The notes below the pieces were generated by a model, which did no database searches, was not told the origin of the DNA, and was given only the letters and a program-made list of their open reading frames with translations. DNA of 64,000 bases. Origin: Patescibacteria group bacterium (GTDB lineage: Bacteria; Patescibacteriota; Patescibacteriia; Patescibacteriales; BM507). The translations under genes were made by a program, and so were the position numbers. The DNA lies in NCBI GenBank assembly GCA_027858235.1, contig JAQIDC010000055.1:29826-93825 (forward strand). Reading direction: 5' to 3'. Shown in pieces: positions 3,463-47,229 of the stretch (position 1 is its first letter; each line of letters begins with the position of its first letter).

Positions 3463-5202
3463 TTATTCTACTAAATCCTCAATATCTCTTATCTCCTTCA
3501 TGGTCTTCTTTTCCATGGTATCTATCTTTGATTTTAGAGCAGCTTGTGTTTCGTCTAACAGTTTCTTTTGGGCTACTGAAGATTTTCCTTTTTTAATCTC
3601 CGTGAAATCATTTTCAATCTCTTTCCTTAGTTCTTTAATATTTTCTCTCAAAACAACTTCAATCTCTGTAGCTTCTTTTTTGAGTTTTTTCTTTGTTAAC
3701 CTCGCCAGGAGTATAAACAAAATAATTATTAAAAGAATTAAAAACAGTAGACTAACAAAAACTGTAAAATAATTTACAACGAAGTCTCCTATTCTTGTGA
3801 ATATTGGAGGACTTACTAAAAATCCTATTTTTACACTGTTTTCACTGCTTAAGCCATTTGCATTTATTGCCTTGGCCCAGGCAACATAAGATCCATTTGA
3901 TAATTTATCCTCATTTATAATAAACCAATTTCCATCTTGATCTGATCTAGTGCTCTTAGTTAATAAAGTCCCTTCCTTCTGAATTGTTAATTCAATTTCT
4001 ACATTTGGTAGCGCTGTACCACTAACATACAATCTGTCAGAAGAGGTCATCTCAGATGGATAATTTACTATAACAGGAGTATCAATCGCATTAATATAGA
4101 ACTTTTGCTCTGAATAAGTTTCATTTCCAGCTGCATCAATAACTTTTACTAAAGCTGTATGCTCTCCTACTCCAAGCCCACTCACTCTCAATGTAGGGTC
4201 TTCTGGACTGGCTTCAAAAGCATTTTCAGTCAGATTGTCTATTGTTATTTGATAGGAGACTACTCCTGATAATTCATCCTTAGTTTCAAAAGAAAGTAGT
4301 GGCCAATCTTCTCCTTCTTCTTTCTTAACTTCTATTTCGAAAGGGAGAGGAGGAGAATTGTCAACTTGTATCTTGTAATGAGCTATAGTACCCCATCCAT
4401 CACCGTCTTTAAATTTTACATGTAGATAGAAAATTCCATCCTCTAAATCTGTGAATTCTTTTGTTTTAATTAAACCATCTGAAGTGTTTCCAGGGTTAGA
4501 ATCAGGAGAATCATTAAATAAATAACTTACACCACTTACTTCACTCGGGATATCCCATTCGAATTGGGCATCCTTATTTTTATACCATTTCTCCTGGTCA
4601 GGGTGAGTAACTGATATTATCTCTGGTTTTACTCTTTCCACTACTGCTGGTCTTGTTTCAACTGGTTTATTGTCTACTGGAGGATTTGCTGGAGCTATCA
4701 CTTTTGGTGAAATAGTATAACTTCCACTTCCCATACTAGCTAAAATATTTGTTCCTTTACCGTCATTGGCAAGAACCGCTCCTGAAGAAAATCTAACTTG
4801 AGCATTCTCGGCCTTTACTCCTTTAAAAGTAACTGAAAAAAGAGTTCCTCCTGAGCCGGTATAACCTGGTCTTGGAATGCCACCGCCAAAGTTTATTGAA
4901 GTACCCGTATCTGTTGGTTCTGCTGTCCAAAGATTAAATATTGAACCCGCCTTTGAGATACTAACCACATCCAATGAGTCTGTATCATAAACTACAGTCC
5001 CCTCAGCTGCATTTATAGAAACTCCATCAGAATTCACCTTCACCGTAACTGTAAAAGTAGAATTAATAACATGAGTGCCAGAAGAGGGGGTTAAATACAA
5101 TGAAGCACTTGCCGCTTGAACTGGCTTTGAATTAGATAGGCCCAATAATAACAATAATAAAACCGCAAAAAATAATTTTAATTTAAAAAATATTTTACTC
5201 AT
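3463..5202 (-). CDS. Membrane-anchored surface protein: signal peptide, cohesin-like domain, Ig-like domains, C-terminal TM helix plus charged coiled-coil tail
   Basis: 579 aa with a strong SD (GGGAGGT) before the ATG at 5202. N-terminus MSKIFFKLKLFFAVLLLLLLGL...VQAASASLYLTPSSG. Paralog of 48479..50239 along its whole length (GIFYLHVKFKDGDGWGTIAHYKIQVDNSPP versus GEWYIHVKYQNKAGWGMVAHKKFLVDTKSP). C-terminal helix VFVSLLFLILLIIILFILLA followed by a K/E-rich tail. Confidence 0.6.
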   Translation of the reverse strand: MSKIFFKLKLFFAVLLLLLLGLSNSKPVQAASASLYLTPSSGTHVINSTFTVTVKVNSDGVSINAAEGTVVYDTDSLDVVSISKAGSIFNLWTAEPTDTGTSINFGGGIPRPGYTGSGGTLFSVTFKGVKAENAQVRFSSGAVLANDGKGTNILASMGSGSYTISPKVIAPANPPVDNKPVETRPAVVERVKPEIISVTHPDQEKWYKNKDAQFEWDIPSEVSGVSYLFNDSPDSNPGNTSDGLIKTKEFTDLEDGIFYLHVKFKDGDGWGTIAHYKIQVDNSPPLPFEIEVKKEEGEDWPLLSFETKDELSGVVSYQITIDNLTENAFEASPEDPTLRVSGLGVGEHTALVKVIDAAGNETYSEQKFYINAIDTPVIVNYPSEMTSSDRLYVSGTALPNVEIELTIQKEGTLLTKSTRSDQDGNWFIINEDKLSNGSYVAWAKAINANGLSSENSVKIGFLVSPPIFTRIGDFVVNYFTVFVSLLFLILLIIILFILLARLTKKKLKKEATEIEVVLRENIKELRKEIENDFTEIKKGKSSVAQKKLLDETQAALKSKIDTMEKKTMKEIRDIEDLVE

Positions 5203-5226: not shown

Positions 5227-6288
5227 TTAATTTTGTTCTTCTTTTTGTTTCTCCTCTAGAGAAGATTCTTTTTTACTTTTAATTTTTTGAAAAATATATC
5301 TCCCAATTTTATATAAAAAGAATATTGTTATTATTAACAATAACACACCAATGGTTATTATTAAATAGTCAAAATTCAGTGCTTTTTTAATATTGGGTTC
5401 TTCGGGAATGTATTCTACACTTCTTTCATTGCCTGCCTTATCAATGGCTTTTACTTTTATAATACTTCGTAGGCTTTGATCTGTGAGCAGAAAAGGAGTC
5501 TCTGCTATTTTCCACTTTGCCTCCTCTGATTTTACGAAAAGTTCCAATACCTTTTCTGTTAATGTTTTTTTAACTGAGAGACTTTTTGTTTCAATTAACT
5601 CATAGTGATCGATTCCACTCTGCTTGTCTATGCTAGAAAAAATAGCAAAATATTGACCCTGGTACATATTGTCTCTCTGATGCAATTCAATAACGAATGG
5701 TTCTGGTTTTGTTTTATCGCTTTTGATTAGTCTGTCATAGTCACCTACTTCAGCTCCAACTGTTTTATTTAAAACAAGACTTAAATTTTCAATCCTTAAT
5801 TTGTCCTCAGTTCCAAGGCCATCATTAATATATACTTTTGCATCTTCGAGCTTTATATCAAGAGTGTCTGGAATAGTGTCACCAACATAAAAACTAGGGA
5901 TTCTAAAAAGTATTCTTCCCACCAAATTACTATTACCGGGATCACCTGGTATTTTACCGCAATAACCACCAGGAATTCCTCCTGCCACATATAGCTCACC
6001 ACTATCATTTGCATCAAATACATCAGTTTCTGACGGTTGGTCCACCCAAACATTTAAGAGAGATTCTCCTGTTATAAAATCTTCTATATACAAAATACCA
6101 GTTGGAAATGTAATCTTAGCTTCTACCGTATTAATACAAACATCATCAATATCTAGACTAAAATTAACAGTAAAAGCATCACCAAGGTGGTATTCATTTT
6201 TTTGAGCATCAAGACTAAGTGAAGCAGCCTTAGTGTAGGCAGGAATAAGTAGGAATATAATCAATGTAGCGAATAAGTATTTTTTCAT
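5227..6288 (-). CDS. Membrane-anchored surface protein with cohesin-like N-terminal domain and C-terminal TM anchor
   Basis: 353 aa. Signal peptide MKKYLFATLIIFLLIPAYTKA. Contains ELYVAGGIPGGYCGKIPG...LVGRILFRIPS, the family motif. C-terminal helix LIITIGVLLLIITIFFLY followed by a K/E tail. Confidence 0.55.
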   Translation of the reverse strand: MKKYLFATLIIFLLIPAYTKAASLSLDAQKNEYHLGDAFTVNFSLDIDDVCINTVEAKITFPTGILYIEDFITGESLLNVWVDQPSETDVFDANDSGELYVAGGIPGGYCGKIPGDPGNSNLVGRILFRIPSFYVGDTIPDTLDIKLEDAKVYINDGLGTEDKLRIENLSLVLNKTVGAEVGDYDRLIKSDKTKPEPFVIELHQRDNMYQGQYFAIFSSIDKQSGIDHYELIETKSLSVKKTLTEKVLELFVKSEEAKWKIAETPFLLTDQSLRSIIKVKAIDKAGNERSVEYIPEEPNIKKALNFDYLIITIGVLLLIITIFFLYKIGRYIFQKIKSKKESSLEEKQKEEQN

Positions 6289-6438: not shown

Positions 6439-7707
6439 TTAACCTGTCCAATAATACATCATTACAGAAAAATCAATTAAATCAACTACTCCATTTTGGT
6501 TTTGATCCGCACATTCATTATCTGTTCCCCAATGGTAAAGAAGTATAGAAAAATCTGTAATATTTACTCTCTCGTCACCATTTAAATCTGCTTCGGCACA
6601 AACAGCCTCTCCTCCAACCGTGCCAACAAAGAAACTAATAGACTTTGAAAAACCACTTTGCAGGGTATTGTCAGCTGAGGCAATAGTAAATAATGCTTTT
6701 GCAGTGTGAAACTCTTCTTCCAAGGGTTCTGTATTGAAAATTAATTCCCATTTTCCATCATCTGTACTTTCAATTGAATTGATAAATTCCTCTGGTGAAT
6801 TAATATGAACATTTACTCCTGATTCTGGAACTGTACTTCCAAAAACTGTTACTGTGTCTCCTCTTGTAACTGTTTTTTTATCTATATCTATTGTTGGGGA
6901 AATATACACCCCAGAGATATTGGTGACAGCTCCTAATGTTACTCTAAAAGTTAGAGAAAGCAAAGTCGATTTGAGACCAACGGGGTCTTCTGACCAAAAA
7001 CTAAAACTAGCAACACCAGCGGAAATTTCATCAGTTTCAAAATAGAAATTTGCCAATGTATCAGTTCTTGAAATACCTATAACCTTACCATCAAGAAGTA
7101 TTTGAACATCTGAATTTGGGTATGATTTGCCACGGACAATAACCTTGGTCTCGCCTGGTGGTACATCAGATCCAGGGTTAAAGCCGGTGGTTAATCCTGA
7201 ATTTCCACCAGTTGATCCTCCTCCACCTCCGCCAGAAGGGACATCAAAGCTTTCGCAATTTTCCAAACTAATACGACAATCAGCTGTACATATTAATGAA
7301 CCGGAGGTAAATCCAAAAGTGATACACGTCTGCTCATTATAATCAGCACCATCACATTCTTCAGAATCCTCCTTAATATTGTTTCCACAATTATAGCAAC
7401 CACTTGTGTCATAATCCGTGCAATCTGACAAGCAATCAAGATCGCCTGAATTATAATATTCTCCTGATGCGTATTCAAAGTCTAGACAAGTTAGTCCACT
7501 TACATCAATTGGAAATACAGGAGGGTCTCCTGGGTCACAAACCTCTAGTCCTTGGATAAAACCATCGCCACAAACCAGCAAAAGAGTAACGGAAGTCAAA
7601 AGGTTTTCCTGCGTTGCCGCCCTCAAACTAAATGGAGAAAGAACCAAGGAAAAAATGGCCAGATAAAATATAGAATACCTCAATTTTTCTTTTAACAAAG
7701 TTTGCAT
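6439..7707 (-). CDS. Secreted protein: Cys-rich repeats, Gly-rich linker, Ig-like domains, C-terminal dockerin
   Basis: 422 aa with a signal peptide. CGDGFIQGLEVCDPGD and CGNNIKEDSEECDGADYN resemble Myxococcus-type cysteine-rich repeats. There is a GGGGGGSTGG linker. The C-terminus DLNGDERVNITDFSILLYHW...DQNQNGVVDLIDFSVMMYYWTG is two EF-hand-like dockerin repeats. Confidence 0.7.
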   Translation of the reverse strand: MQTLLKEKLRYSIFYLAIFSLVLSPFSLRAATQENLLTSVTLLLVCGDGFIQGLEVCDPGDPPVFPIDVSGLTCLDFEYASGEYYNSGDLDCLSDCTDYDTSGCYNCGNNIKEDSEECDGADYNEQTCITFGFTSGSLICTADCRISLENCESFDVPSGGGGGGSTGGNSGLTTGFNPGSDVPPGETKVIVRGKSYPNSDVQILLDGKVIGISRTDTLANFYFETDEISAGVASFSFWSEDPVGLKSTLLSLTFRVTLGAVTNISGVYISPTIDIDKKTVTRGDTVTVFGSTVPESGVNVHINSPEEFINSIESTDDGKWELIFNTEPLEEEFHTAKALFTIASADNTLQSGFSKSISFFVGTVGGEAVCAEADLNGDERVNITDFSILLYHWGTDNECADQNQNGVVDLIDFSVMMYYWTG

Positions 7708-7727: not shown

Positions 7728-8792
7728 TTATTTATGTCTTTCATTGTCTTGATATTTTGATGCTTTCTTGCCTATCCATTTCCAAAAACGGACTTTTCCT
7801 TCAGCAAAAGACGAACCAAGCAGACCAAAGACAAAACCAAGAGGTTTCCCTATGAGAAAATAGAGGACTAAAAGAAGATATCTCCAAGATTTAATCTTAA
7901 CGAGAAGAGCTAGAATTATTAATAATATAAAAGCATAAAGAGCCATTAGCATCCAAGGCCAAATCCCAAAATCAGGAGCAGCGGCTCCCATTTCTCCAGC
8001 TGGAGATATTGTGAATGTTTTATCATCAGTTTTAATAATTTCGTTATCTTTGTATACTTTTATTAAAGCCCAATATTGACCTGGATCTAGATTAACAGGG
8101 AAAGTCGCCTCAACATCGGCAACCTCAAAAGGACCAACTTTATCAAAGCTTTTATCATCTAATGAAGCTAGAGTTTTTTTCTTTGAGATATCGGTTATGT
8201 CAATATGGACCCTAGATGGTGCGACATCTAAATTCCCAAGATTCTCAAGAGTCATCACAGCCTTTAGCCTATAAAAAAACCATGAAAATATTTTCATATT
8301 CCATGGAAAACTTAACTGTTCAAAATTATCGATTTCAATTTTTCTGATTTTAAAATCAAAAATTGTTAAATTTGACACTGTTAAATCAATATCAACTCGG
8401 GCACCAAGGGCAATTGCAACTCCGCCAGTTTTTTTATCTTTTGGAGAAATTCTTATATTTATAAAACCTTTATAAACATCCAGGGTTGCATCTTGAGGAA
8501 CATCAACAACAACGACCATTAGAACCTGAAGTTTGCCTTTGGGTAGGTCAAAAATTTTTCCTTCTTTGATGGATATCCAAGAAGCAATCTCTGGGGCATT
8601 TATAACTACAGTTGCCTCTAAGTCTTCATCTGCTGCGGATCTCAACAGCGTGATTTGTTGTTCAAAGTGAGTCCCTGGAGTCAACTTATCTGATCTTACA
8701 TAGGGTGGTGAGATACCAAAACCAGCGCTAACAGCTGTAGCCTGAAAAAAAATAGATGAAACTATTAAGATTGATAGTAATTTTTTGAACAT
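7728..8792 (-). CDS. DUF916/DUF3324-like surface protein with C-terminal TM anchors
   Basis: 354 aa. Signal peptide ends ...ATAVSAGFGISPPYV. Shares motifs with 54202..57466 paralogs (ENLGNLDVAPSRVHIDITD versus NTGNVHLQPKGNIVIKD). Has C-terminal hydrophobic helices. Confidence 0.45.
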   Translation of the reverse strand: MFKKLLSILIVSSIFFQATAVSAGFGISPPYVRSDKLTPGTHFEQQITLLRSAADEDLEATVVINAPEIASWISIKEGKIFDLPKGKLQVLMVVVVDVPQDATLDVYKGFINIRISPKDKKTGGVAIALGARVDIDLTVSNLTIFDFKIRKIEIDNFEQLSFPWNMKIFSWFFYRLKAVMTLENLGNLDVAPSRVHIDITDISKKKTLASLDDKSFDKVGPFEVADVEATFPVNLDPGQYWALIKVYKDNEIIKTDDKTFTISPAGEMGAAAPDFGIWPWMLMALYAFILLIILALLVKIKSWRYLLLVLYFLIGKPLGFVFGLLGSSFAEGKVRFWKWIGKKASKYQDNERHK

Positions 8793-8943
8793 TAAATAAC
8801 TAAAATAACTAAAATATTTAGCATTACAATTTAAAAATAAATCATTTTTGAAAGTAAATTTTTTTACTAAAAATTAGCAAAAAACAGCTTATGAACTTTT
8901 CTACTGTTACTAATAATATACTATAAAACAAAAAATAAATCAA

Positions 8944-8996: not shown

Positions 8997-10769
8997 TTAC
9001 CACTCACCGGCTACATTATCATCAAGAACTGCTGTAAAAGTATTTAAGCCCGTGTAATCACCTGAGAGAATAATTGGAACTGCTATCCCCCAGTAAATAT
9101 CGTCTTCAACGTCTGTTACGCTTGTTGGTCTTGGCACAGCAGTATCAACAAGAATTTGTGAGGATGAGGCGATTGGAGTGCTTCCAACACCATAATCAAA
9201 ATTTGCTAAATCAAACTGCTGGTTTAAGGCAGGAATAGATTCTGGACCAATACCATCTCTAAGCATGTCTTCACCTATCAATTGAGTGTCTAGAGGGGTG
9301 TTCCCAGCATTAACAATAGTCGTAGTAGCATTGTCTGTGCCTGAATCAGTATTTGCGACTAAAGAGCCGTAGGCAATTTCAGCTTCATTTACTTCTATAC
9401 CCAAGGTAGCATTCAAATCTACTCCAGAAGAACTTGAGGCATAAGATGCCGCTTCATCAAAAGCTCTAATTGAAGCCAGCCAATCGGTATCCCAGTTTGG
9501 ATTTGCATCCAAGCCAGTACCACTTGTTGGGAGGGCAAAATATGCTAGATCTGCTGAGCATTGAACATCAACATCAACGTCAACTCCACCTGTACAACCA
9601 GTAACCGTACAAGCAACCGGAATCGGATAACAATCATTGTCATCTTGAGAACAATCAGCTCCACCAGTCGCATCAGACCAATAAATTGTCCCTGTTGCCG
9701 ATGATATATCGCCGCATCCATTATCATCTGTTACAGAAGTTGAGCTAGCATAAACAGCAATATTTGATGCTCCTTTTAGGTTTAAGGTAATTGGATTACC
9801 GTCATTTAGTAAAACTGAAGAGACTGACGGCGTAGCATTAGCGATAGTATAGTTGCTAGTTTGAGAATTTCCAGTTGATGGTAAATCCCCTTCATCTTTT
9901 ACAAAAGCCCAATAATTATAAGAAACATCATCTAGAGGGACCGTACTAGTCCAAGAGCAACTTGCATCTGGTGAGGTTGAAGTCGCTGTACAGAGAGTTG
10001 TTGCATCACATCCCGCCACTGTCCAAGAGTCAGTAGAACAAACATAGATAGATAAAACATCCACACCACCAACAATATCTGAATCAGTAGTTGAGGCTAG
10101 AAAAGTAAAATCATCACCTGGGACTTGATTGTCTACAGTTGTAGTAACCTCAGAGAACAATGGTGCATGATTTATATGAAAAGGTGTCCCAGGGTCTCCT
10201 GTTCCACTATTTGAAGAAACTGAACAAGCAGCTTCATCACTGTGATTATCACAAACATATGCAACCCAAGCCTGAGTCTCTGCTACTATAGAAGCTTCAA
10301 CGGTATACGAACAAGAAGCTTGCACGGTTGAAGAAGCTACTGCAGAAACACAAAATTGTTTTGCTCCTCCTCCAGTACAGCTTGGTGCTGATCCTCCAGC
10401 TCCAGGTGTTGCTCCATCTATATCACAAACTAGTAAATAGTAGTCATTGCTTTCAGCATCATCGCCAGTTCCTATAAAAGTTACATCGCTTCCTACATTC
10501 ACAGGAGAAGTTGAAGCTGAAGCTGGACTCTCTGCTGCGACCCCTGTAAATGTTGGGGGGGCGTTTTGAACAGTAACTGTTGTAGTCGCTGTATCATCGG
10601 TTTGTGCTTCCACTTCTGGAATATCAACGCTTATACCTATCCTATCTCCTGTTTTATTAACACCTATATCAAAATTAAAAACTAAACCAATCACTGACAT
10701 ACTCAACAAAGATAATATCAAGAAAAAAGGTAAAGAATGTTTAAATTTCTTTTTTATAATTTTAGCCAT
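8997..10769 (-). CDS. Secreted/anchored protein homologous to the C-terminal roughly 520 aa of the giant protein (free-standing 'tip' module)
   Basis: 590 aa with N-terminal signal-anchor LPFFLILSLLSMSVIGLVF. From QNAPPTFTG onward it aligns colinearly with the giant protein from NTAPAFTVNP to its end (HINHAPLF/VINHPPVF, SGTDNATTTIVNAGNTP/SGTDNATTTIVNLGNSP, DDIYWGIAVP/DQLFWGIGIP). Confidence 0.7.
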   Translation of the reverse strand: MAKIIKKKFKHSLPFFLILSLLSMSVIGLVFNFDIGVNKTGDRIGISVDIPEVEAQTDDTATTTVTVQNAPPTFTGVAAESPASASTSPVNVGSDVTFIGTGDDAESNDYYLLVCDIDGATPGAGGSAPSCTGGGAKQFCVSAVASSTVQASCSYTVEASIVAETQAWVAYVCDNHSDEAACSVSSNSGTGDPGTPFHINHAPLFSEVTTTVDNQVPGDDFTFLASTTDSDIVGGVDVLSIYVCSTDSWTVAGCDATTLCTATSTSPDASCSWTSTVPLDDVSYNYWAFVKDEGDLPSTGNSQTSNYTIANATPSVSSVLLNDGNPITLNLKGASNIAVYASSTSVTDDNGCGDISSATGTIYWSDATGGADCSQDDNDCYPIPVACTVTGCTGGVDVDVDVQCSADLAYFALPTSGTGLDANPNWDTDWLASIRAFDEAASYASSSSGVDLNATLGIEVNEAEIAYGSLVANTDSGTDNATTTIVNAGNTPLDTQLIGEDMLRDGIGPESIPALNQQFDLANFDYGVGSTPIASSSQILVDTAVPRPTSVTDVEDDIYWGIAVPIILSGDYTGLNTFTAVLDDNVAGEW

Positions 10770-11356: not shown

Positions 11357-12553
11357 TTAACTATATCTAATAGCTTCAAGTGGGCTAAGCTTGGCTGCTC
11401 TTTGGGCTGGGAAAAGGCCAGTTAAAAATCCCATTACAGCTGAAAATATTGCTATAAAAGTAAGGAAGGGTATCGGAAATCTAAACAGAGAGATTGCTGT
11501 CCCACCCATTTTGAGTGCAATTGAATTTAGGAGAAAATTAACAGCCAATCCACCACCAACTCCGATTCCCATCCCCACAATCCCTCCCAAAAATCCCATA
11601 ATAACTGACTCTGTTAAAAATAGAGTTTTAATGGCCGATGGTGACCCGCCTATGGTTCTCATAATTCCTATCTCTTTTGTGCGTTCCAAGAGCGTAACTG
11701 TCATGGTGTTAAACATACCAATGGCCGATACGATTAAAGCAATTCCACCAAAGGTAGCAAGAGTAGCCTGGATTCCTTTAAAAATTTTATTAGCCTGATC
11801 AACTGTTTTAGATAGGGCGGTTACCATAAATCCCTTGTCTAGAATTTGAGCTTCTGCCGTATCTAAAAATTCATTACTGACGATCTTCACTCTAGCTTTT
11901 TCATAATAAGGTATTGCAAAATTATCTTCAAACTCAGTTAATGGAATATAGGCAAACAATGAAGCCTGGTCATCAACAACAGCTGATATTATATATTCTC
12001 TAGACATTGGTACTTCAATAACATCTTCTGAGTCTAGTTTTGGAATAAATACTTTAAATCGAACCCCCTGACCGATAGCATCTTCTGGTTCTATTCCAAA
12101 AAGTTTTAAAACTGCGGCCGATATAGCAATTTTATTTTTGTCTCCCTCAACGTACATTGATCCTTCGGCTGCTATTACGCCAGCGTAAGAAAAGTATGCT
12201 GGTCTAGCTCCTTGCAACATAATACTTCCTGTTAAATCTCCCAAGGTAACGAGGGAAGTAAAACTAGCCATGGGTTCAACTGCTTCAACGTTGTCTAGCT
12301 GATAGAATTCTTCTACCATTTCATCATCAATAATAACTACTTTCGATGGAGGGGTTCCTACATTTAAACTGAGAAGTGCTTCGCCAAATACAATCTTTTC
12401 AAGCAATACTCCCTGCAAACCATACCCAAGGCCAACCAAAACAACTACGGCGGCAATACCAACCCCAATACCAACGATTGTCAACCAAGTCCTTGCTGGC
12501 TTGGTCTTAAACATTCTTGTTGACAATTTTAATGAATCTTGAACTCTAATCAT
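11357..12553 (-). CDS. ABC transporter permease, FtsX/MacB type (4 TM with large extracytoplasmic domain)
   Basis: 398 aa. N-terminus LSTRMFKTKPARTWLTIVGIGVGIAAVVVLVGLG, then a loop of about 220 aa, then a C-terminal FtsX-like 3-TM block (RTKEIGIMRTIGGSPSAI...). Confidence 0.8.
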   Translation of the reverse strand: MIRVQDSLKLSTRMFKTKPARTWLTIVGIGVGIAAVVVLVGLGYGLQGVLLEKIVFGEALLSLNVGTPPSKVVIIDDEMVEEFYQLDNVEAVEPMASFTSLVTLGDLTGSIMLQGARPAYFSYAGVIAAEGSMYVEGDKNKIAISAAVLKLFGIEPEDAIGQGVRFKVFIPKLDSEDVIEVPMSREYIISAVVDDQASLFAYIPLTEFEDNFAIPYYEKARVKIVSNEFLDTAEAQILDKGFMVTALSKTVDQANKIFKGIQATLATFGGIALIVSAIGMFNTMTVTLLERTKEIGIMRTIGGSPSAIKTLFLTESVIMGFLGGIVGMGIGVGGGLAVNFLLNSIALKMGGTAISLFRFPIPFLTFIAIFSAVMGFLTGLFPAQRAAKLSPLEAIRYS

Positions 12554-12566
12554 ATTTATATAAATA

Positions 12567-12692
12567 AACTCTAAATTCTAATATCTAAACTCTAAACAAT
12601 ATCTAAACTCAAAATTCTAATATCAAAACAGTTTTGAACATTTGTATTTTAACATTAGGATTTATTTAGGATTTAGGATTTAGTGCTTAGAT
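12567..12692. repeat. Long AT-rich intergenic palindrome (family copy 2)
   Basis: Left arm of TCTAAA-type units (12567..12620), centre AAACAGTTTTGAAC (12626..12639), and right arm TTAGGATTTATTTAGGATTTAGGATTTAGTGCTTAGA (12655..12692). Lies downstream of the stop at 12751. Confidence 0.7.
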
Positions 12693-12750
12693 TTTTTTAA
12701 ACATTAAATATCGTAAAATTTAATTAAAAACTATAAATTTAAAAATAAAC

Positions 12751-14073
12751 TTAATGGGCCGCCTTCACTTCAAGCCCTTGAGTAATTAATTTTTCAAAAT
12801 ATTCTGTCACATTTCTGGCGGACACTTTACTAAAACCGACTCCCCCTTTTTTTGTACTCGCTTTTAATTTCTTATAAAAATCTTCTTTACGGGAAACACC
12901 AGATATTCTCTCCCTAACAGCTTCTCGCATCATCCTTAGTCTGTAGGGGGTCATTTCTCCTTTATATTCTTCTAAAACATATTTAGTTAATTTATTTACT
13001 ACTCTGTCTTCCTTGGAAAAGAAAATATTGTGCTCAAATCTTCGTCTATATCTTCTAACATCTTCTGATTGATTTATAATATGTTCAACTTTTTCAGACA
13101 TTGTTTCAGAAACTGACTCAGATAAACCAACGCCTCCTTCTAAATATTTCCTTGAGAGTTCCTTCATAAATTCATCTTTGCCCATCTTCCTTTCAACCAT
13201 TTTCCCAATTAACTCTTCTAACCTTATTATCTTATCAAAGCTTATATCTTGTGTTAAATAATTTACTAAAGATTTTACCTTTAGTACAACAGGGGTGTCA
13301 TATGGATACATTTTTGAAAGCTGATCCATTTCTGAAACAAATGTTTTTTGTCTATCTACTTTTGCAATTTGTTTTTTGTCAGGATTTGGAACAATTCTTT
13401 TTAATTTACCATCTCCCATATAAAAAACTCGATGCGAATACATAAGCTGGGCAGCATTATGAGTGATTAAAATAATTGTTGTTTTTTCTGTTTCATTAAT
13501 TTCAGCCAACAAATCCATAACTTGCTTTGTCGAAACTGAATCGAGATTCCCCGTCGGTTCATCCGCTAGAAGAATCTTTGGATTATTTACCATTGCCCGA
13601 GCAACAGAAACCCTCTGCATCTGTCCACCAGAGAGATCGGCTGGGAATTTACCCCCTTGGCCAGTTAAACTTACTCTCTCTAGGAGCTCGTTTCCTCTTT
13701 TTTTTCTTTTTTTCTCATTGTATCCAAGAAAAGTTAAGGGCAGGGATATATTATCAATAACTGAAAGAGAATTTATTAAGAAAAATGCTTGATAAATAAT
13801 TCCAATGGTTTTCGCTTGAAAATCCACCATTTGATCTGGAGTATATGTATAGGGATTATCTCCATTCACATAAAGCTCCCCAGCTGAAGGTTCTAGAATT
13901 CCAAGGATAGAATAAAAAATAGTTGATTTACCACAACCAGAAGGACCAAAAAAAGATATAACCTCTCCTTCATATATTTCTGAAGTTACTCCCCTGGTTG
14001 CCTTAAATTCATTTTCCTTACCAAGGTTATAAGTAATTTCTAGGCCTTTAGTTTTAATTATTGGTTGTGGCAT
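12751..14073 (-). CDS. ABC transporter ATP-binding protein (MacB/LolD-like) with a roughly 210-aa C-terminal extension
   Basis: Walker A GPSGCGKST, signature LSGGQMQRVSVARA, Walker B ILLADEPTGNLD. Residues from about 230 to 440 are an extra helical, charged region containing an internal duplication. Confidence 0.85.
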   Translation of the reverse strand: MPQPIIKTKGLEITYNLGKENEFKATRGVTSEIYEGEVISFFGPSGCGKSTIFYSILGILEPSAGELYVNGDNPYTYTPDQMVDFQAKTIGIIYQAFFLINSLSVIDNISLPLTFLGYNEKKRKKRGNELLERVSLTGQGGKFPADLSGGQMQRVSVARAMVNNPKILLADEPTGNLDSVSTKQVMDLLAEINETEKTTIILITHNAAQLMYSHRVFYMGDGKLKRIVPNPDKKQIAKVDRQKTFVSEMDQLSKMYPYDTPVVLKVKSLVNYLTQDISFDKIIRLEELIGKMVERKMGKDEFMKELSRKYLEGGVGLSESVSETMSEKVEHIINQSEDVRRYRRRFEHNIFFSKEDRVVNKLTKYVLEEYKGEMTPYRLRMMREAVRERISGVSRKEDFYKKLKASTKKGGVGFSKVSARNVTEYFEKLITQGLEVKAAH

Positions 14074-14076
14074 ATT

Positions 14077-14155
14077 TTAGTTAAAAGTTAAAAGTGTAAA
14101 GTTAAAAGTTTTTTAAAATACTACTTTCAACTTTCATCTTTTAACTTTCTACTTA
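14077..14155. repeat. AT-rich intergenic palindrome (variant sequence, same placement)
   Basis: GTTAAAAGTTAAAAGTGTAAAGTTAAAAG pairs imperfectly with the reverse complement of TTTCAACTTTCATCTTTTAACTTTC. It fills the gap between the stop at 14159 and the start at 14073. Confidence 0.6.
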
Positions 14156-14158
14156 TTT

Positions 14159-15787
14159 CTACATTTTTATATTCTTAACCCATCCGAATGTTCCTTCGAA
14201 GTTCTTTAGAATTATATCAATAATACTTTCCTCTCTAGACGGAGTTAACATTGTAAAATCTTGAGATTTTGCCATATTTTGTGCATCATCATGGCAAACT
14301 ATCCAAAACTTGTATACATTAGCTGGAAGAAAGTTAGTAACGACCTGTACATGGTCAGACACATAGTCCTTTTCCTCTGGGAGTATTTCGTCTCCATCTA
14401 ATGACACAATGCCTCTGTGATAATTAAGCTGACATTTTGAGGCCTCATCGGTTTCATAGGAAATTATAGTCTGAACTTTATTGTCTGAACCTGGGTACAG
14501 GGTTGATTCTGTATTTACTTTTGTTATTAGTGGTGGTTCAGCATCCCTAGTTGTAATAAAAGTTAGGGGGTCGGAAACAGATTTTTCATTTTGTTCATTT
14601 TCTACTGTAACGACCACGGAGTAATAGGTATCAAAAATAAGATTATTTAATTTAATCATATGACTACTTAAATAAGCTGACTGACCTTCTAACTTGGACT
14701 CTCCTGTATTTAGGTTTGTGTATTCTATGATAGCAGCAGTTGGGATATTCGTTGAAAAAGCTATGGTTGCCGAAGTTTCCTCTACTTTAGAAAGACTTAA
14801 GTTCTGAATAATCGGCAAGACAGACTTGGTCATAAATGTGCCGTCACTGCTTTTGGCTTCTTGATCTAGAATGGTTTTTGAGGATACTTGAAAATGATAA
14901 GTAGTGGCTGGCTCTAATCCAGTTATTTCAATTCTATGCTCCAAAACAGTTTCATCTGGCTCTCCTTCATTCCAGGTGTATGGATCATCAGCTTCATAAT
15001 TAAAGGTTTCATCAAGAGCAAGAGATACTATTGAGTTTGCCTCTTTGTTTGTTTGCCAATAAATAATTGCATAATCTGTTCCCACTTCAATATTAGCATT
15101 GTCTAGTATGATAGATAGTTCGCTCGCAACATCCTCGGCAACAGCCTGAATATGCTCTTCAATAATTTCCAATGTTTTCTCTTCTTGCACTTGTTCTATT
15201 TTTTCTAGAATTTGCATTAAGAGTTCTTTCTCTTCTATCTCTTCTACTTCCTCGAGTTGTTCCATGTCAACGTCAATTTTAACATTTCCCTCTTGATCAA
15301 CTCCTGAAATATCGTCTCCAAACATTTCTGAACAAACCGACAAAATATCATCTTCTAGGTTCCCGTAGGCATAGTCCCTGTCGTATTCAGTTTGGAAAGT
15401 AAAGTCATTGGATAATTTTTGATTACCAGACTCGTCGGTAGAAGTAATCCTAAAAAAATACTGCATATTAGGGATAAGATCCGCCAAAAGTATCTCGTGT
15501 TCTGTTTTATCAAAATGAGGGCTCCTCGAAACTCCGTAATTTTTATCTAAACCATAATTAATTAATGAATCTGTTTCTTCATCTGTTTTCCATTTAATTA
15601 AAGTGGATGTCGCGGTAACATCAGAAACTACTATTTCAGAAATATCTGGAGTGGTCTCGTCATCAGCAGCCTCTGCCAAATTTACTTTTTGCATTTGCAT
15701 AAATACAAAAATACCCAAACCTAAAACTAATAGACTGGCTACTACAAACATTACTAGATTTACGATAAAAAATTGTTTTGCTTTCAT
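14159..15787 (-). CDS. N-terminally anchored protein with about four FN3-like domains and an acidic coiled-coil spacer
   Basis: 542 aa with a strong SD (AAGGAGGAA). TM helix FFIVNLVMFVVASLLVLGLGIFVF. The FN3-like block SDVTATSTLIKWKTDEETDSLINYG...YFFRITSTDESGN recurs (ATIAFSTN..., AIIYWQTN...). The central segment is E-rich (EQLEEVEEIEEKELL). Confidence 0.6.
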   Translation of the reverse strand: MKAKQFFIVNLVMFVVASLLVLGLGIFVFMQMQKVNLAEAADDETTPDISEIVVSDVTATSTLIKWKTDEETDSLINYGLDKNYGVSRSPHFDKTEHEILLADLIPNMQYFFRITSTDESGNQKLSNDFTFQTEYDRDYAYGNLEDDILSVCSEMFGDDISGVDQEGNVKIDVDMEQLEEVEEIEEKELLMQILEKIEQVQEEKTLEIIEEHIQAVAEDVASELSIILDNANIEVGTDYAIIYWQTNKEANSIVSLALDETFNYEADDPYTWNEGEPDETVLEHRIEITGLEPATTYHFQVSSKTILDQEAKSSDGTFMTKSVLPIIQNLSLSKVEETSATIAFSTNIPTAAIIEYTNLNTGESKLEGQSAYLSSHMIKLNNLIFDTYYSVVVTVENEQNEKSVSDPLTFITTRDAEPPLITKVNTESTLYPGSDNKVQTIISYETDEASKCQLNYHRGIVSLDGDEILPEEKDYVSDHVQVVTNFLPANVYKFWIVCHDDAQNMAKSQDFTMLTPSREESIIDIILKNFEGTFGWVKNIKM

Positions 15788-15844: not shown

Positions 15845-18800
15845 TTAATATAATTGCCAATCATCAACGTCAAGCTTAACTGAAAAGTCATTTTGTCCAT
15901 TGTATACTGAGGCATATGCTCCATTAGGAATACCTATTCCCCAGAAAAGCTGATCGCTAATTTCACTAGAGTTAATTGGGTTTGGAGTTACTGTATTTAC
16001 ATCTGTTCCGATTGTTAAAAGATCTACTCCACTAGACCAAGTAAAATTACTCAGATCCCATTCTATATTTTTTGCCGGAATTGTCCCGGATGGGTTCCCA
16101 AACATATCAGTTCCAGACAAGGTAGTATCGATTGGTGAATTCCCTAGATTTACAATTGTGGTTGTAGCATTGTCAGTTCCAGAGTTTTCACCCACAAAAA
16201 GATTTGATCCAAAATCAATAATATCTTCATTCACATTTAGGGCTATTGTTGTATTTAGCTCTACCCCAGACGAGGAAGTGGCCGCATAAGAAGATCCGTC
16301 GTAAATACTAATATATGAAAGCCAATTATAAATTGACCAAGGATTGTTTTCAGAGTCATCCGTTGGAGCTGCAAAATATTCCAGGGTTGTACTACAGGTA
16401 TAGGAAGCGCTCGGGTCATCATCCCCGGTACAACCAGTTTTTGAACAAGATAGTGGATTTATCTGATAGCACACACTATCATTAGGAGTGCAATTAAATC
16501 CGCTGGCAACATCCGACATATATATTGCAGCAGATGCTCCAATTAAGCCAGCATCACATCCGTTTTGGTCTGTCACTGAAGCAAGAACAGTATTTATCGG
16601 AGTTCCTCCAGCTCCTTTCATATTAAGTGTTATAGCGGAACCGCTATTTAGAATCAATGAACCAAGAACTGGGGCAACGTTATTTATTGTATAGGTATTG
16701 GTTCTGAAATTATCTACTGATGCCAATCCATTACTGTCAAAAATAAAAGCATTGTAAGTGTAATCTCCTTGCAGAGTTGGAGCAGTGTCAGTAAATGAGC
16801 AAGAAACATTATCTGTTGTGGTTGCATAAGAACAAATTGTATCAGTAGGACCGCCTCCACAACCAGCTACCCCGGCTGTATTCCCAATACAAACATAAAA
16901 GGAAAGGATATCGTCTCCACCCAAAGTATCTGAATCATTTGATGTGCTTGTTATCGTGAAGCTTGACCCAGGGTCGTTATTGTTATCAGAAGTTATAACA
17001 GCAGAAAATACTGGTGGGTGATTTATTACAAATGGACTGTCATTGGCGCTAGCTGTTCCTGATCCCTGTGAAGAAAGAGAACATTTGGCATTTCCTACAC
17101 CAGCATATTTATCGCAGACAAAAGCAAACCATTCAAGTGATTCTGTGCTGGTGGCTGTGGTATAGGCACAAAAAGCTTCGTCTGTGCTTGAAGCCAAGTC
17201 CGAAACACACCATTCTCCTCCACGACAAATTGGAGGACCATCATTTCCTGATCGGATGCTATCAGTCTGACAAATTGCTAAATAATAATCATCTGTTTCA
17301 ATATCATCGGCAGTTGCTGTAAAAGTGACATCTTCTCCAAAATTTGTTGGAGTGTTGGTTGCTGAATTATTATCACTTGGATTGACCGTAAATGCTGGAG
17401 CAGTATTTGAAATACCGGCTAATGTTAACTCCGGATAAATATTATAGGAATCTAAGTCTGTTCCGGAATTCGTAACTCGAAAACAATAAGTTCCTGCCGT
17501 ATAGGCATCGACAGTTGCTCTAATGCTATATTCTAACTCAGTATATCTATTTTCGATTAAACTAATATTACCAGATGAATTTGAAGGGTCCTCCACCATC
17601 GTTCCAGCCACAAAAGTATATTCCTCAATATTAGATAGTTGTGCTGTTGTCGGATCACTATCAACAAAATTAGAGCTCGCTGCCATTTCCCATTCTTCTG
17701 TTGTTGCGCCAACTGGGATAGTCACCCATCCACCTGGGTCAGAAGAACAACCAGTTGTTGTATAGGCATATTCAATTTGATAATCATAATTTGATGCAGC
17801 GCCACCACCAATATTAGCTACCTCAATTCTCAGTCTAGTTGTGCTTCCAATCTCAAGAGCTATACCGGTTAAAGGGTCCCCATCATCTTCTAACTCTCTC
17901 CAAGTGGCCGTGGTCTCAGAACCATCATCATTTCTAAATCTATAATGAATTTGTTTAACATTTGGATCGGCTGGGGAAAAGCTAGTATTAAAATAATCTG
18001 AAGAAAATGTAGTTGATGATGCAACATCTTGATACACTCTCCAAAAAGTTTGATTGGAAACATTATAATGCTCTGTTAAAGCTGAATTAATACTTCCTGT
18101 TATGTCAAAATCCGTATTAACTGTACTGGTGGCGTTAGTAGAAACAGTTACCCAGGAATTTGTAGAACCAAAACGATAAACCTGCAAAATAACATCAGCA
18201 TCTGTTCCCGCTATACCAGACTGACCATTCCAAGTGACACTAATAGCGTCTGTATCGTTAGTATGCTTGGTGACAAAATTATAAATTGGATATTCTGAAC
18301 TAGTAGTAATGCTATCACGAACACCATTGTCAGAGGCGATGTCAGAATAACCGTTTGGATCTAGGTAATAAGTTAAATCACTTGAAGCAATTGGTAAACT
18401 GGCTATGCTTATTTTTGAATATTTAATAATTTCGGTAGCGATTGTTGAGAAAGTTAAATAAGAAGAATAATTATCCAATGCCTTATCCCCAGTTAAATTA
18501 TAAAGACGTAGACGATAAGTCTTTCCAGCGAGAGCATTGCTGGTTTCAAGGGCAAAAACAAACTCTGTATAGAAACCATTACCCAAAGTAAAGACTCCTG
18601 TCTGATCAGAGCCCTCATGCCAACTTCCATTTATCCAAGTATTGGCATTAAGGGCAGCTTTAGCAGAACTTATAAAATTTCCGTTGGAACCAGATAATCC
18701 TTGTGAATATGAAACTTGAGTTTCTGCCCCAACATTAACCCAAGTTCCAGGGCTGTCGGTTTGATTTTCGTATTGAATCTGATAAGTGGTATTTAGAGCA

Positions 18801-21800
18801 ACATCCCCCCCTGTATTCTCTAGTTGAAGTCGACCATTAAATCTTTCTCCTAAATTAATATTAGCCAAACTAGTATCAATTGCAGACGCTCCTGTATTTG
18901 CATTTACTGTTGCCCCATCATCATTTTCAATAATATATGAAGACTGCTCAAGATAAGGAGCTTGATTGGTGGTAATAGTGACTTGTGTTGAGCTTGCTCT
19001 ACTTCCGGCTAAATCATAAGCCCAGATATTTATATAATAAGTTGTATTAGCCTCGAGACTGTAAATCGTTGTATCACTGGCCCCGCTATAATTTATAGCA
19101 GACAAATTAGCGTCGGTATGTTCGGCATTGAGTTCACTAACTGGTGAAGTAGTTGAATAAAATATTTTATATTCGGAAAAATTAAGTTCAGTGGTTTGTG
19201 CACCAAAATTTAGAATAACACTACTGCTAGTTTTTGTCTGTTCTGTTAGAGCTCCTGGCGCTGTTGGTGGAGTAGCATCAACTTTAAAATTTGGAGTAGC
19301 TAGGTTATATTTAACCCAGTTGGAACACTTCGCTTGGTCATCACAAGCAATGACCTGCCATTTATATCCAGTCGCTGAATCTGGGACAGAAGGAATACTA
19401 ACTTTATCAGAAAATTTTGTGACAGAATAATCTCCAGCCGAGCTTGATGCTACAAACCAAATTCTTGAAGCACAACTTCCAAAAGCTGTCCCCCAGACGC
19501 AAGCGCTCCCAGGCTCCTGAGTGCTTAGTTCAAACGAAGAAGCGTTTGCTATCAATTGAATATAGAGACTAATCACTTCACTGGTATCTGGGTCATTGGC
19601 AGCTGCCTCAAGATAAACCTCATTTGTACTTGACCAATCTCCATTTGGAATAGTGGTGGTCGCGTCAGATTCATACTGAACTAAAAGAGTCGGAGTGGAT
19701 GGAGCAGAATTTCTTTTGGCGAATGAAAAACTTGTTGCATCATCGTCATAATCGCTCGGGGTAATTCCGGTCGCAATTGAAGTCCAAATTTGATTGGAAC
19801 TTGGATTGTCGGTACTATTGTAAAAACGACCATTAAAACCATCCCAAAATACGGCCGAATAATCACTAGTGCTATTTTGATAAATTGCAACAAACTCATC
19901 CTCGTTGGGATCAATGCCTGTTCTTACCCTTGACCAAGTTGCGGCAGATGATCCTGGGACAGCGGTGTCAGTAGCATCTAGAGAATTAGCGCTAGCATCT
20001 AGATTTCTATATTTTGGTGTAGCACTAGTGTTTTCATTCCAAAGAGCAACTGCGGAGTCTGCCGCATAGAAAACTAAATCATAGGGTTTTTGAGAATTGT
20101 TTGTATAAGAATAGGCGTTGCTGCCTGAAATGTTATCTCCATTTGTTGGAGTTGACCAAACAGGAGCCCCAGTTGAAATGTCGACTTCGTAAACATTTGC
20201 TTCTCCATTTTGGTCATCACCAATATAATAAGCCACGCCATCCGACTCGGGGTTGGAAGCAAATTCACCGTGAACAAAAGCCCCTGCCCAAGTTACAGGA
20301 CTTGTAGCCTCCGTTCCATAATTAATAGTTGTGTTTGTTACAACAAAATATTTTGCTTTTGTAGAAGCAGCCGTATCTGAATTTGAATAATTAAGAGCGC
20401 CCTTTGTGTTGTCGCTTGGATTAAAATAAGCCTCACCAACATAGTTTGCCAATTCTCCTTCTTCGCCTGAATGTTCTGTCCAGGTTGTCCAAGAATTTGC
20501 ATAAGTCGAACCACCGTAATAATACGCACTTCCCACATTTCCATAATAATTATGGCCAGCTGCTCTATGGTAATGATTATCAAAAGTCATGAGAACATAG
20601 TTGTCTGTCCCTGGTCTTCTTTCAAGTCTGCATCCATTCATGATTTCTCCTGGGTCTGGTCCGTTCGATTCTGTTGTCCAACCACTTGAGTTCCAGGAAT
20701 AAACCTGCGTTCCGTTTGTAGAATTATTATTTCTAAGCACAAAGAATTCGCTTTCAGAAAGAGAACCAAGACAAGCTGATAATTTATCAGCGTCTGTCGC
20801 AACTGCCGAAGCCGAACCAAGCTGAGACGTGTTAACAAAATCATCTGCAGCGTAACGATAAACTGTTCCCCACCATTCTTGGTTTGTTCCATCCCAAGTT
20901 TTCACTACTACTAAAATTTTGGCTCCATCATCTGAACGGATTGAGTCTATATGTCGGATGTTATCTCCAGATGCTGACCCAAGTGTTGGCCCAGTTTGCT
21001 CCGTGCTCCAAGCTGAACCATCCCAATATCTATAGAAAAGACTTTGCGTATTTTTGGTATAGAAAAATACCCCCGGGGTGGAAGATATCGGGTCGGTCGT
21101 AATAGCCACCTCTGTTGAGCTTGCCTTATTCCCCGCCTCATCATAAGCCCAAATATTTATATAGTATTGAGTATTTGAAAGAAGGTCAGAAATTGATGTG
21201 ATAGAGACGCTATTATAATCAATGAAAGATAGACTTGTGTCCGCGTGTTCAGCATCAGTCTCTGCTACCGGGGTTGTGGTTGAATAAAATATTTTATATT
21301 CAGTAAAATTGATTTCATCGGTTGATGTTCCAAAGGTCATCGTAATATTGGAACTATTTTTACTTGATTCGACTAATGCTCCTGGAGGTGAAGGTGCTGT
21401 ATCATCAACTTTAAAGTTTGGAATAACTGTATTGTAGGTGCTCCAATCACTAACACACCCTCCATCATCATCACACGCAAAAACTTGCCACTTATACCCT
21501 CCACTTGAATCTGGGATATCTGTTATGCTGGTCGTAGCATAAAAAGATGTAACGCTATAATTCCCTGGAGTGGAAGTTGAAGTAAACCAAATATTAGAAG
21601 CACAGGTCGTGTAATCAGTTCCCCAAACACATGCACCAGTCGGCTCAGTAGTCGCTGTTGTAAAAGTACCGCTTGAATCAATTAATTCAAAATAAATAGT
21701 TAAAATTTCTGAACTATCTTGATCATTGGCCCAAGCTGACAAATAAATATCATCGTTATTTATCCAAGCTCCATTTGTAATTAAAGTAGTTTCGTCATTC

Positions 21801-32549: not shown

Positions 32550-32927
32550 TTACTTAAGATTATATGAGATTATTTTTATCTCATCTGTATATGATATAAG
32601 GACTTCAATTTCTCTATAATAATTATTTATATTAGCTTTAATGTTTAATATTTTTAACCCAGAAACATTGTCTATATTTATTATACACAATCCTTCATTA
32701 AGGGACAAAGAAAAGTCTTCAAGTTCGAGAGAGTTATCACCCTGGATCCTTCCTAAAACATCTTCTAAACAAGAATCTGCTAGATACAAAGATTCTTTGC
32801 TCCCAATGTAATCACTTGACATTTCGAGGTCCCCAAGAGCCAGAAAACTGGCAGTTGTTGCCATTAGTAAAGAAGTAACCGAGATTATTACTACTAAAAA
32901 TATTGTGCTTAATCCCCTCTTATTCAT
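32550..32927 (-). CDS. Minor pilin-like protein (PilX-like, no Glu5)
   Basis: 125 aa. MNKRGLSTIFLVVIISVTSLLMATTASFLAL is an N-terminal hydrophobic helix. Abuts the neighbouring genes. Confidence 0.45.
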   Translation of the reverse strand: MNKRGLSTIFLVVIISVTSLLMATTASFLALGDLEMSSDYIGSKESLYLADSCLEDVLGRIQGDNSLELEDFSLSLNEGLCIINIDNVSGLKILNIKANINNYYREIEVLISYTDEIKIISYNLK

Positions 32928-32929
32928 AA

Positions 32930-34860: not shown

Positions 34861-34864
34861 ATGA

Positions 34865-35944: not shown

Positions 35945-35947
35945 AAT

Positions 35948-38039: not shown

Positions 38040-38054
38040 AATTGTAATGAATTG

Positions 38055-38435: not shown

Positions 38436-38470
38436 ATTTATTTATTATACAATTTTATTAGTTTTATTTT

Positions 38471-38479
38471 ATTATAGCA
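38471..38479 (-). promoter_or_regulatory. Extended -10 box TGCTATAAT (minus strand) ahead of the REC-REC-pilus operon
   Basis: Plus-strand ATTATAGCA, in the 72-bp gap between the kinase stop (38508) and the REC start (38435). Confidence 0.45.
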
Positions 38480-38507
38480 TTATTCTATGTATTTATTAAT
38501 TTGCAAT

Positions 38508-42260: not shown

Positions 42261-42266
42261 ATTTTC

Positions 42267-43538: not shown

Positions 43539-43636
43539 AATTACTTATAAAATAAATAAAAAAGCCCAAAAAATAACTTTCTTGTTTTTGGTGTATTTTT
43601 AATTCCTCCTTCATACTTTGTTTATCTTATATAACT

Positions 43637-43645: not shown

Positions 43646-43671
43646 TAGATGGGTATTAATTAACAAAAATA

Positions 43672-47214: not shown

Positions 47215-47229
47215 AGAACAATTATACTT

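Follow-up and report, generated by a model that had tools for sequence, protein, structure and literature searches.

We analyzed a 64,000-nucleotide stretch of DNA from a Patescibacteria group bacterium (contig JAQIDC010000055.1; the whole stretch is called the window here), focusing on four genes for membrane-anchored beta-sandwich proteins that an earlier note, made from the sequence alone, had grouped into one family. One of these genes lies at 7728-8792, which together with its surroundings forms locus A, and the other three form a trio at 54202-55320, 55321-56349, and 56354-57466, which with its surroundings forms locus B. All four open reading frames (ORFs) are present at these coordinates on the minus strand (Table 1), and a separate gene call on the source contig gave the trio, counted from 56354-57466, the same lengths of 370, 342, and 372 amino acids (aa). 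The protein encoded by 56354-57466 has an identical entry at NCBI, PF572_05000. Proteins are named below by the first coordinate of their genes.

Judged from sequence comparison, the paralogy of the four proteins is far beyond chance. Within locus B, 54202 and 55321 match 56354 with E values of 3e-49 (33% identity) and 4e-15 (22% identity), and the divergent locus A protein reaches merely 0.002 against 56354 when the two are compared as a pair. When a profile of the 7728 family (65 homologues) was aligned with a profile of the locus B family (69 sequences) in hhalign, the match had a probability of 98.9% and an E value of 1e-17, and it persisted after signal peptides and transmembrane segments were trimmed away (97.9%, 3e-13). 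The locus B copies are packed head to tail just as the earlier note had described, with the TAA stop of 55321-56349 immediately preceding the ATG of 54202-55320 and only four nucleotides, gaac, between the end of 56354-57466, also a TAA stop, and the ATG at 56349. The proposal that these genes make up a single family with a common architecture holds.

Each of the four proteins starts with a hydrophobic helix followed by an A-x-A/AQ site, features from which a signal peptide is predicted. In an AlphaFold2 model of 56354-57466 (predicted local distance difference test [pLDDT] of 84.9), a helix at residues 3 to 19 leads into two all-beta domains at residues 32 to 168 and 176 to 287, then a transmembrane helix beginning at residue 290 and a second helix at residues 342 to 369. 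A hydropathy scan placed one or two C-terminal transmembrane segments in every member, with tails ranging from 6 to 70 residues. The shared motifs that had been listed for the family survived in part: N.GN(V/L)(H/D)..P occurs in all four proteins, but a strict PGG(H/Y)Y..V..GTKP is confined to 54202 and 56354, the other two having a degenerate form.

Among the secreted proteins next to the locus B trio, two of about 350 aa and a giant fn3-rich protein, which is at least 2309 aa long on the source contig Ga0534205_000014, share one C-terminal domain, located in the giant protein at its extreme C terminus (E value of 1e-55 with a hidden Markov model [HMM] of the C-domain). An N-terminal domain is also common to both 350-aa proteins and to the dockerin protein at 50989-52848. 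The NCBIfam model NF058581 (CPR_Pam_pilin_C) recognizes the C-domain in 59343-60437 (E value of 1.3e-8, 35 bits, full model 3-148), in 57742 (1e-5), and in the C terminus of the giant protein (9.6e-6). A conserved linker, IAIIDTVTVTAHV, joins the two domains of 57742 (P0121), whose AlphaFold2 model has a pLDDT of 93.4. For comparison we assembled 79 related loci from a scan of species-representative genomes and annotated all of their ORFs with profiles. Our C-domain profile connects the window pilins to relatives scoring 129 to 172 bits, past the curated NF058581 cutoff of 55 bits, and pilins at 165 to 172 bits adjoin members of the anchored family in loci L078, L063, L087, and L089. The description of the locus B copies as neighbors of secreted subunit-like proteins was essentially correct, and the subunits carry the Pam pilin C-domain.

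The Pam pilus is already known from cryo-electron microscopy of filaments of "Candidatus Mycosynbacter amalyticus" (Troman et al., bioRxiv 10.64898/2026.03.03.709456). According to that preprint, the C-domain of the Pam pilin receives the linker of a neighboring subunit and the fiber polymerizes by donor-strand exchange; PamT, which consists of the C-domain only, is placed at the tip, and PamR, an RbmA-like protein with tandem FnIII domains and a donated N-terminal strand, acts as a transmembrane-anchored terminator. The same work describes PamC and PamD as FimC/PapD-like two-domain chaperones with a signal peptide and, unlike classical chaperones, a C-terminal transmembrane helix. The genes of both accompany the pilin genes, and in AlphaFold3 predictions strands of PamC and PamD lie inside the pilin C-domain (bioRxiv 10.64898/2026.03.03.709456). 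The preprint is silent on DUF916 and WxL.

We consider it probable that the four genes in the window encode chaperones of this PamC/PamD type: membrane-anchored, PapD/FimC-like proteins serving an usher-less, donor-strand-exchange Pam pilus of the Candidate Phyla Radiation (CPR) in a monoderm cell. A Pam pilus fits the locus better than a WxL system because the neighbors carry the Pam pilin C-domain and the anchored proteins share the architecture of PamC and PamD, namely a signal peptide (predicted here), two FimC/PapD-type beta domains, and a C-terminal transmembrane helix. The setting is also alike, being an operon in a CPR host that encodes two-domain Pam pilins and a protein with the pilin C-domain only, along with neither usher nor sortase. 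The differences are that three paralogs in fixed order are found here, compared to two in M. amalyticus, the first of them with a second transmembrane segment at its extreme C terminus, and that locus B adds to the M. amalyticus operon a giant (>2300 aa) fn3 protein, an FGE-like enzyme, an Hsp20, and a dockerin/cohesin pair.

Fold comparisons place these proteins near both strand-donating chaperones and the WxLIP proteins of Firmicutes. In a Foldseek search of the PDB with the 56354 model, the WxLIP chains 9i1y_A and 9i25_C ranked first, with E values of 1e-9; we found no paper for either entry. The fimbrial chaperone CfaA followed at 1.8e-9 with a template modeling score (TM-score) of 0.53, and CsuC was close behind. 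As a class, the chaperones of chaperone-usher systems (PapD, FimC, CfaA, and CsuC) have a similar two-domain immunoglobulin (Ig)-like fold and match at E values of 2e-9 to 1e-6, with TM-scores of at most 0.54. Donor-strand complementation of truncated Ig-like subunits is presumed to be alike as well, and tip adhesins of chaperone-usher systems likewise combine a large N-terminal part with a C-terminal pilin domain. However, chaperone-usher chaperones are soluble, whereas the window proteins are tethered to the membrane of a monoderm envelope and lack an usher, no usher-like gene being present in locus A or locus B. Pam subunits are also two-domain proteins in which an internal linker is donated, while chaperone-usher subunits donate an N-terminal extension. 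The Pfam models PapD_N and PapD_C found nothing in the four proteins at an E value of ≤1, and the resemblance to the PapD class is one of fold level only.

The earlier note had compared the family to CscA-type proteins that combine DUF916 with DUF3324, a comparison that holds for the first domain as remote homology and does not reach significance in sequence for the second. The Pfam model for DUF916, PF06030 (WxLIP_PGBD), has a curated gathering cutoff of 27.3 bits. Its best match in the window is 54202-55320 at 19.3 bits (E value of 0.0012, model positions 22 to 117 of 121), and 7728, 55321, and 56354 gave no match, leaving all four proteins under the cutoff. PF06030 is the sole recurrent Pfam match in the family, always below threshold, with 22 of 69 members at an E value of <0.01 and a best value of 4e-5. 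A profile search of PDB sequences returned EfmWxLIP1 alone (E value of 0.05), and one homologue carries the NCBI name "DUF916 domain-containing protein." As a reference set for profile-profile comparison we took seven proteins that are annotated "DUF916 and DUF3324 domain-containing" and encoded on Lactobacillales plasmids, each beside WxL genes. Against this set, the full-length locus B family aligned over 298 columns with a probability of 97.1% and an E value of 7e-11, a score inflated because the signal peptide and transmembrane helix contributed part of it; trimming to the ectodomain lowered it to 86.6% and 4.5e-6. Domain 1 alone aligned over 122 columns (91.8%, 7.4e-7). The second Ig-like domain is predicted to sit ahead of the transmembrane helix, in the same place as DUF3324, but by itself it gave an E value of 0.036 and a probability of 1.4% against WxLIPs/DUF3324, and PF11797 (DUF3324/WxLIP_HBD) produced weak matches in only 5 of 65 relatives of 7728 (best, 0.0025). 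The 7728 family alone did not reach significance against the WxLIPs (E value of 0.04) and is linked to DUF916 only via the locus B family (3e-13). Sequence profiles support domain 1 as a remote homologue of DUF916, and this chaperone-like family as a remote homologue of the WxLIPs of Firmicutes, although the proteins are not members by curated criteria. As far as remote homology and architecture go, the initial description of DUF916-like anchored beta-sandwich proteins beside secreted subunit-like proteins was essentially right. In the literature library searched, no publication tied DUF916 or WxL to Patescibacteria.

The overall architecture of the four proteins is WxLIP-like: as in the WxLIP/CscA/DufA proteins of Lactobacillales, a signal peptide is followed by two Ig-like domains and a transmembrane helix. 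A WxL cluster is defined by at least one WxLIP and at least two WxL proteins (Hassan et al. 2023), and such clusters likewise pair a small and a large secreted partner with a common C-terminal domain. A disordered hairpin of WxLIP is expected from prediction to turn into a strand that completes the WxL sandwich, a further likeness to the strand donation predicted for the window proteins and their partners. One alternative explanation is consequently that the four are static anchors of the WxLIP type, each holding one secreted partner noncovalently on the cell wall, with neither fiber polymerization nor a chaperone cycle. The remote DUF916 homology of domain 1 is consistent with this, as are the top fold matches to Enterococcus faecium WxLIP, including a WxLIP-long WxL complex (9i25); the parallel between the cluster and the WxL definition in having a small partner, a large partner with a C-terminal partner domain, and an interacting protein; and partner motifs that are colinear with those of WxL (FG..L; GF.VTV compared to GW.LTV; AGDY..TLTY compared to aG.Y..TLTW). 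What makes static anchoring unlikely is the partner domain itself. Against nine WxL domains it gave E values of 0.014 to 0.016 and probabilities of about 3%, PF13731 (WxL) gave no match in 78 relatives or 10 distant homologues, and the dual W-x-L motif is missing from the pilin C-domain, where the equivalent positions read F-x-V and Y-I-x. The partners thus show no detectable WxL similarity, and the domain instead matches the Pam pilin C-domain, which cryo-electron microscopy showed to polymerize by donor-strand exchange. In addition, the hallmark of WxLIP is a conserved N-terminal motif, NQIDKxxxYFDLK (Hassan et al. 2023), and its position corresponds to an 11-residue deletion of the locus B family in the hhalign alignment. 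The window also differs from WxL clusters in having Pam pilins as partners, in encoding no LPXTG protein, and in its phylum, since >91% of WxL proteins sit in Firmicutes.

Pam-type chaperones, the interpretation we prefer, must also be weighed against PamR, as one or more of the paralogs might act as a PamR-like terminator or anchor that ends elongation and tethers the fiber. PamR and Vibrio cholerae RbmA have similar tandem beta-sandwich domains, PamR shares the C-terminal transmembrane helix, and RbmA chains are among the Foldseek matches (E values of 2e-8 to 4e-7), although they rank lower, as do many tandem-Ig proteins. In favor of such a role, the neighbors tested in the window gave no NCBIfam PamR match; neither PamR nor PamT genes were detected there. 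However, TM-scores to RbmA are 0.31 to 0.34, compared to 0.49 to 0.54 for the chaperones CfaA and CsuC, and the PamR model NF058578 found nothing in the four proteins at an E value of ≤1. Locus L078, where the order is family member, pilin (170 bits), family member, and PamR-like gene (109 bits), holds a separate PamR-like gene next to two members of the family, and in the window a stronger candidate for a terminator is the dockerin protein, which carries a pilin N-domain. We regard a PamR-like role as quite improbable. L078, a Saccharibacteria-type locus, also contains a gene at 8283-8867 (minus strand) for a 194-aa secreted protein ending in AAGKYTTAIVYTAAPQTN, placed between a family member and the Pam pilin and on the opposite strand to them; it resembles a single-domain pilin, and no NCBIfam Pam model matches it.

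The operon is conserved across the 79 species-representative genomes, the majority of which have Patescibacteria/CPR record titles. The canonical arrangement, all on one strand, starts with a giant protein of 1,400 to 2,800 aa that ends in a pilin C-domain and takes the first position in most related operons, continues with one or two pilins and the three anchored paralogs, and then runs through one or two FGE-sulfatase-like proteins, a 130-aa transmembrane protein, the protein combining a pilin N-domain with a dockerin, Hsp20, and a transmembrane cohesin protein. Among 47 loci with a triplet, 45 keep the order 56354-type, 55321-type, 54202-type, and a pair of C-terminal hydrophobic helices is usual in the first. 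A pilin C-domain gene lies within 1.5 kb of a family member in 64 of the 69 loci with upstream sequence. Distant loci are simpler: pilins and small PamT-like proteins accompany one or two members of the family. Record titles span Falkowbacteria, Parcubacteria, Nealsonbacteria, Uhrbacteria, Kerfeldbacteria, Buchananbacteria, Paceibacteria, and Saccharibacteria. Another 20 of the 79 loci bear the title "uncultured Gammaproteobacteria" or "Pseudomonadales" (binchicken metagenome-assembled genomes; for example, L012, L013, L018, L019, L027, L028, and L083); they have the same operon at 30 to 54% identity, some on 0.77- to 0.89-Mb contigs or chromosomes. These titles look like misassigned placeholder taxonomy, and we treated them as unreliable.

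It would be a very distant prospect, given this arrangement, that the four are free-standing, membrane-tethered Ig-like surface proteins, such as adhesins or envelope spacers, whose clustering reflects coregulation rather than assembly. Weak generic Ig-like/E-set matches (GH123_N_2 in 41 of 65 relatives of 7728, CARDB, and NPCBM_assoc) would suit such proteins, as would the general character of the window, a surface-protein island that includes type IV pilus genes and giant fn3 proteins. Yet the synteny with pilin genes is tight, ordered, and translationally coupled across 79 genomes, and the similarity to strand-donating chaperone-type proteins is specific, not generic.

Table 1. Genes of loci A and B in window coordinates, with predicted products
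Feature	Position	Strand	Remarks
Locus A cohesin/Big_13 transmembrane protein	3463-5202	minus	Downstream of the 7728 gene
Locus A 353-aa transmembrane protein	5227-6288	minus	Downstream of the 7728 gene
Locus A dockerin protein	6439-7707	minus	Downstream of the 7728 gene
Divergent paralog 4, locus A	7728-8792	minus	354 aa; one transmembrane helix, second hydrophobic segment, 30-aa basic tail
Secreted 590-aa protein	8997-10769	minus	Directly upstream of 7728-8792; conserved position
Membrane-anchored cohesin + Big_13 protein	48479-50239	minus	Cohesin E 2e-6, Big_13 E 2e-10; conserved position
Hsp20 family protein	50252-50689	minus	PF00011 E 3e-15; inside operon
Pilin N-terminal domain-dockerin protein	50989-52848	minus	Start uncertain (gene call, 574 aa); Dockerin_1 E 5e-6; conserved position
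Small transmembrane + coiled-coil protein	52784-53200	minus	138 aa; conserved operon member
FGE-sulfatase/SUMF1-like protein	53346-54185	minus	PF03781 E 1e-16
Chaperone-like paralog 3	54202-55320	minus	372 aa; one transmembrane helix, 70-aa hydrophilic tail
Chaperone-like paralog 2	55321-56349	minus	342 aa; ATG start, alternative TTG at 56361; one transmembrane helix, 37-aa tail
Chaperone-like paralog 1	56354-57466	minus	370 aa; two beta-sandwich domains; two C-terminal transmembrane helices, no tail by hydropathy scan; heads conserved triplet
Pam-type two-domain pilin	57742-58782 (also given as 57742-58839)	minus	346 aa from MKKLRK start; N-terminal beta-sandwich, C-terminal pilin domain
Second Pam-type two-domain pilin	59343-60437	minus	364 aa; domains by HMM
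C-terminal part of giant fn3-rich secreted protein, candidate tip adhesin	61083-64000	minus	Runs off window

If these proteins are Pam-type chaperones, assembly could proceed in five steps, of which the first, fourth, and fifth draw on sequence or genomic evidence, while the second and third are steps we infer. After Sec export, the C-terminal transmembrane helix would tether each protein with its two Ig-like domains outside the membrane. Domain 1 would then insert its last strand (GAGMSIGQQAATLILFQV in 56354-57466), with the loop ahead of it, into the open C-domain of a freshly exported subunit, which would stay folded until the linker strand of a following subunit took the place of the chaperone strand. 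For this proposed donor segment, residues 151 to 154 of the 56354 model have a pLDDT of <50, yet G151, A152, and Q159 hardly vary among family members. In the third step, the clients of locus B are likely to be the two 350-aa pilins and the giant fn3 protein, whose huge N-terminal part and terminal acceptor domain resemble the FimH/PapG type of tip adhesin and make it, by analogy, a likely tip adhesin here. Fourth, the three paralogs may divide these clients among themselves; because they are ancient and kept in fixed order, a division of labor is suggested, and by analogy with what has been proposed for PamC and PamD, they probably serve different clients. Last, the dockerin protein may terminate the fiber and tie its base to the membrane cohesin protein. 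It gives an E value of 2.6e-20 with the pilin N-domain HMM and has a linker-like VAIVEAVTVSS (pattern, IAIVxPVxV) but no pilin C-domain, and since it keeps the N-domain and linker without an acceptor domain, it could cap the fiber base. The cohesin protein at 48479-50239 is its probable receptor, and a role for the dockerin protein as a cohesin-tethered terminator or anchor is the more speculative part of this scheme.

Several observations weigh against assigning these genes to the PamC/PamD class. NCBIfam models matched neither the four proteins nor ten relatives from Saccharibacteria-type loci, and the NF058581 matches within the window, at 26 to 35 bits, fall under the curated cutoff. The fold matches have modest TM-scores (0.43 to 0.53) and high root mean square deviations (rmsd), and tandem Ig-like domains are common enough that many unrelated two-Ig proteins reach Foldseek E values of 1e-8. 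The assignment draws on architecture, fold class, and gene context, and strand donation is something we infer. One of three homologous paralogs could be an anchor or terminator instead of a chaperone. Finally, no Pam-type pilin was detected near 7728-8792, and an operon setting with Pam pilins is supported for locus B only.

An FGE-sulfatase/SUMF1-like gene directly follows the triplet in 38 of 79 loci, and an Hsp20 gene is present in 23 of 79; the two products could modify or fold the pilins. Extra density on a PamA serine has been reported (Troman et al., bioRxiv 10.64898/2026.03.03.709456). Separately, the best superposition for the pilin N-domain (P0121, residues about 30 to 155) was the Bacillus subtilis biofilm hydrophobin BslA, with Foldseek TM-scores of 0.59 to 0.66 and an rmsd of 3.8 to 4.8 Å over about 126 columns. 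The motif SDT(I)S.S......HT(I).F is conserved in this domain and occurs in the dockerin protein too.

Locus A repeats the layout of locus B in that one or more secreted proteins, one or more anchored proteins, a dockerin protein, and a membrane cohesin protein come in that order, and a type I dockerin protein is paired with a membrane cohesin/Big_13 protein at both. The secreted 590-aa protein at 8997-10769, considered as a pilin or WxL protein, matched neither the pilin C-domain nor WxL. The conserved synteny of locus A comprises a giant fn3 protein, an fn3 protein, a MacB-type ABC ATPase and permease, and a 160-aa protein, followed by one or more 580-aa secreted proteins, the 7728-type protein, a dockerin protein, a 356-aa protein, and a cohesin protein. 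In the window, 15845-29872 is a 4675-aa ORF with a TTG start, and 11357-15787 encodes a 542-aa fn3/purple-acid-phosphatase-N protein followed by a MacB-type ABC ATPase and an FtsX permease. Three other genomes keep the order of giant fn3 protein, ABC transporter, 580-aa secreted protein, and 7728-type protein, and the transporter may belong functionally to locus A. The product of 5227-6288 comatches with cohesin proteins, suggesting a paralog.

Between loci A and B lie type IV pilus genes (30714-37630), including a PilB-like ATPase at 35948-37630, a PilC-like platform protein at 34865-35944, and two proteins with prepilin-type N-methylation motifs at 32930-34390. Two unrelated fiber systems are encoded within 64 kb. 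Directly downstream of locus B, 37641-47943 is a dense signaling block with a CheY-like receiver, a 1250-aa PAS histidine kinase, a PAS protein, a 7TM-type histidine kinase, a fused methyltransferase-GNAT/FeeM-like protein, and an OmpR-type response regulator (47230-47943).

Attachment to other microbes is how Patescibacteria live, and surface fibers are thought to make the first contact with the host cell. The Pam system itself has already been described; what is new here is a variant of its operon absent from the preprint and an unreported link to the WxLIPs of Firmicutes. The Pam pilus was recognized only in 2026, in one cultivated species of Saccharimonadia, and the window reveals a large related family: the locus B profile finds 2,013 representatives of 50% identity clusters at an E value of ≤1e-30 and 13,799 at ≤1e-3, the latter possibly including bona fide DUF916 proteins. 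In Falkowbacteria- and Parcubacteria-type genomes this family sits in a conserved, more elaborate operon, in which specific genes can be named as candidates for the roles of chaperone, tip adhesin, and membrane anchor.

Through the DUF916 homology of domain 1, the Pam machinery is connected to the WxL/Csc surface clusters of lactobacilli, enterococci, and Listeria, which are still poorly understood. We entertain, as a tentative idea that may well prove wrong, that WxL/WxLIP (Csc) and Pam are forms of one ancient monoderm system in which a tethered, PapD-like strand donor serves incomplete Ig-like ends, with the operon described here as a distinct Pam variant that has three specialized chaperones, a giant tip adhesin, and a cohesin-dockerin-anchored terminator in place of PamR. 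If this were true, WxL proteins would be handled, and perhaps polymerized, by donor-strand complementation, and the origin of the Pam chaperones could be traced outside the CPR. The DUF916 link suggests a common mechanism of strand donation, one that is testable in genetically tractable Firmicutes.

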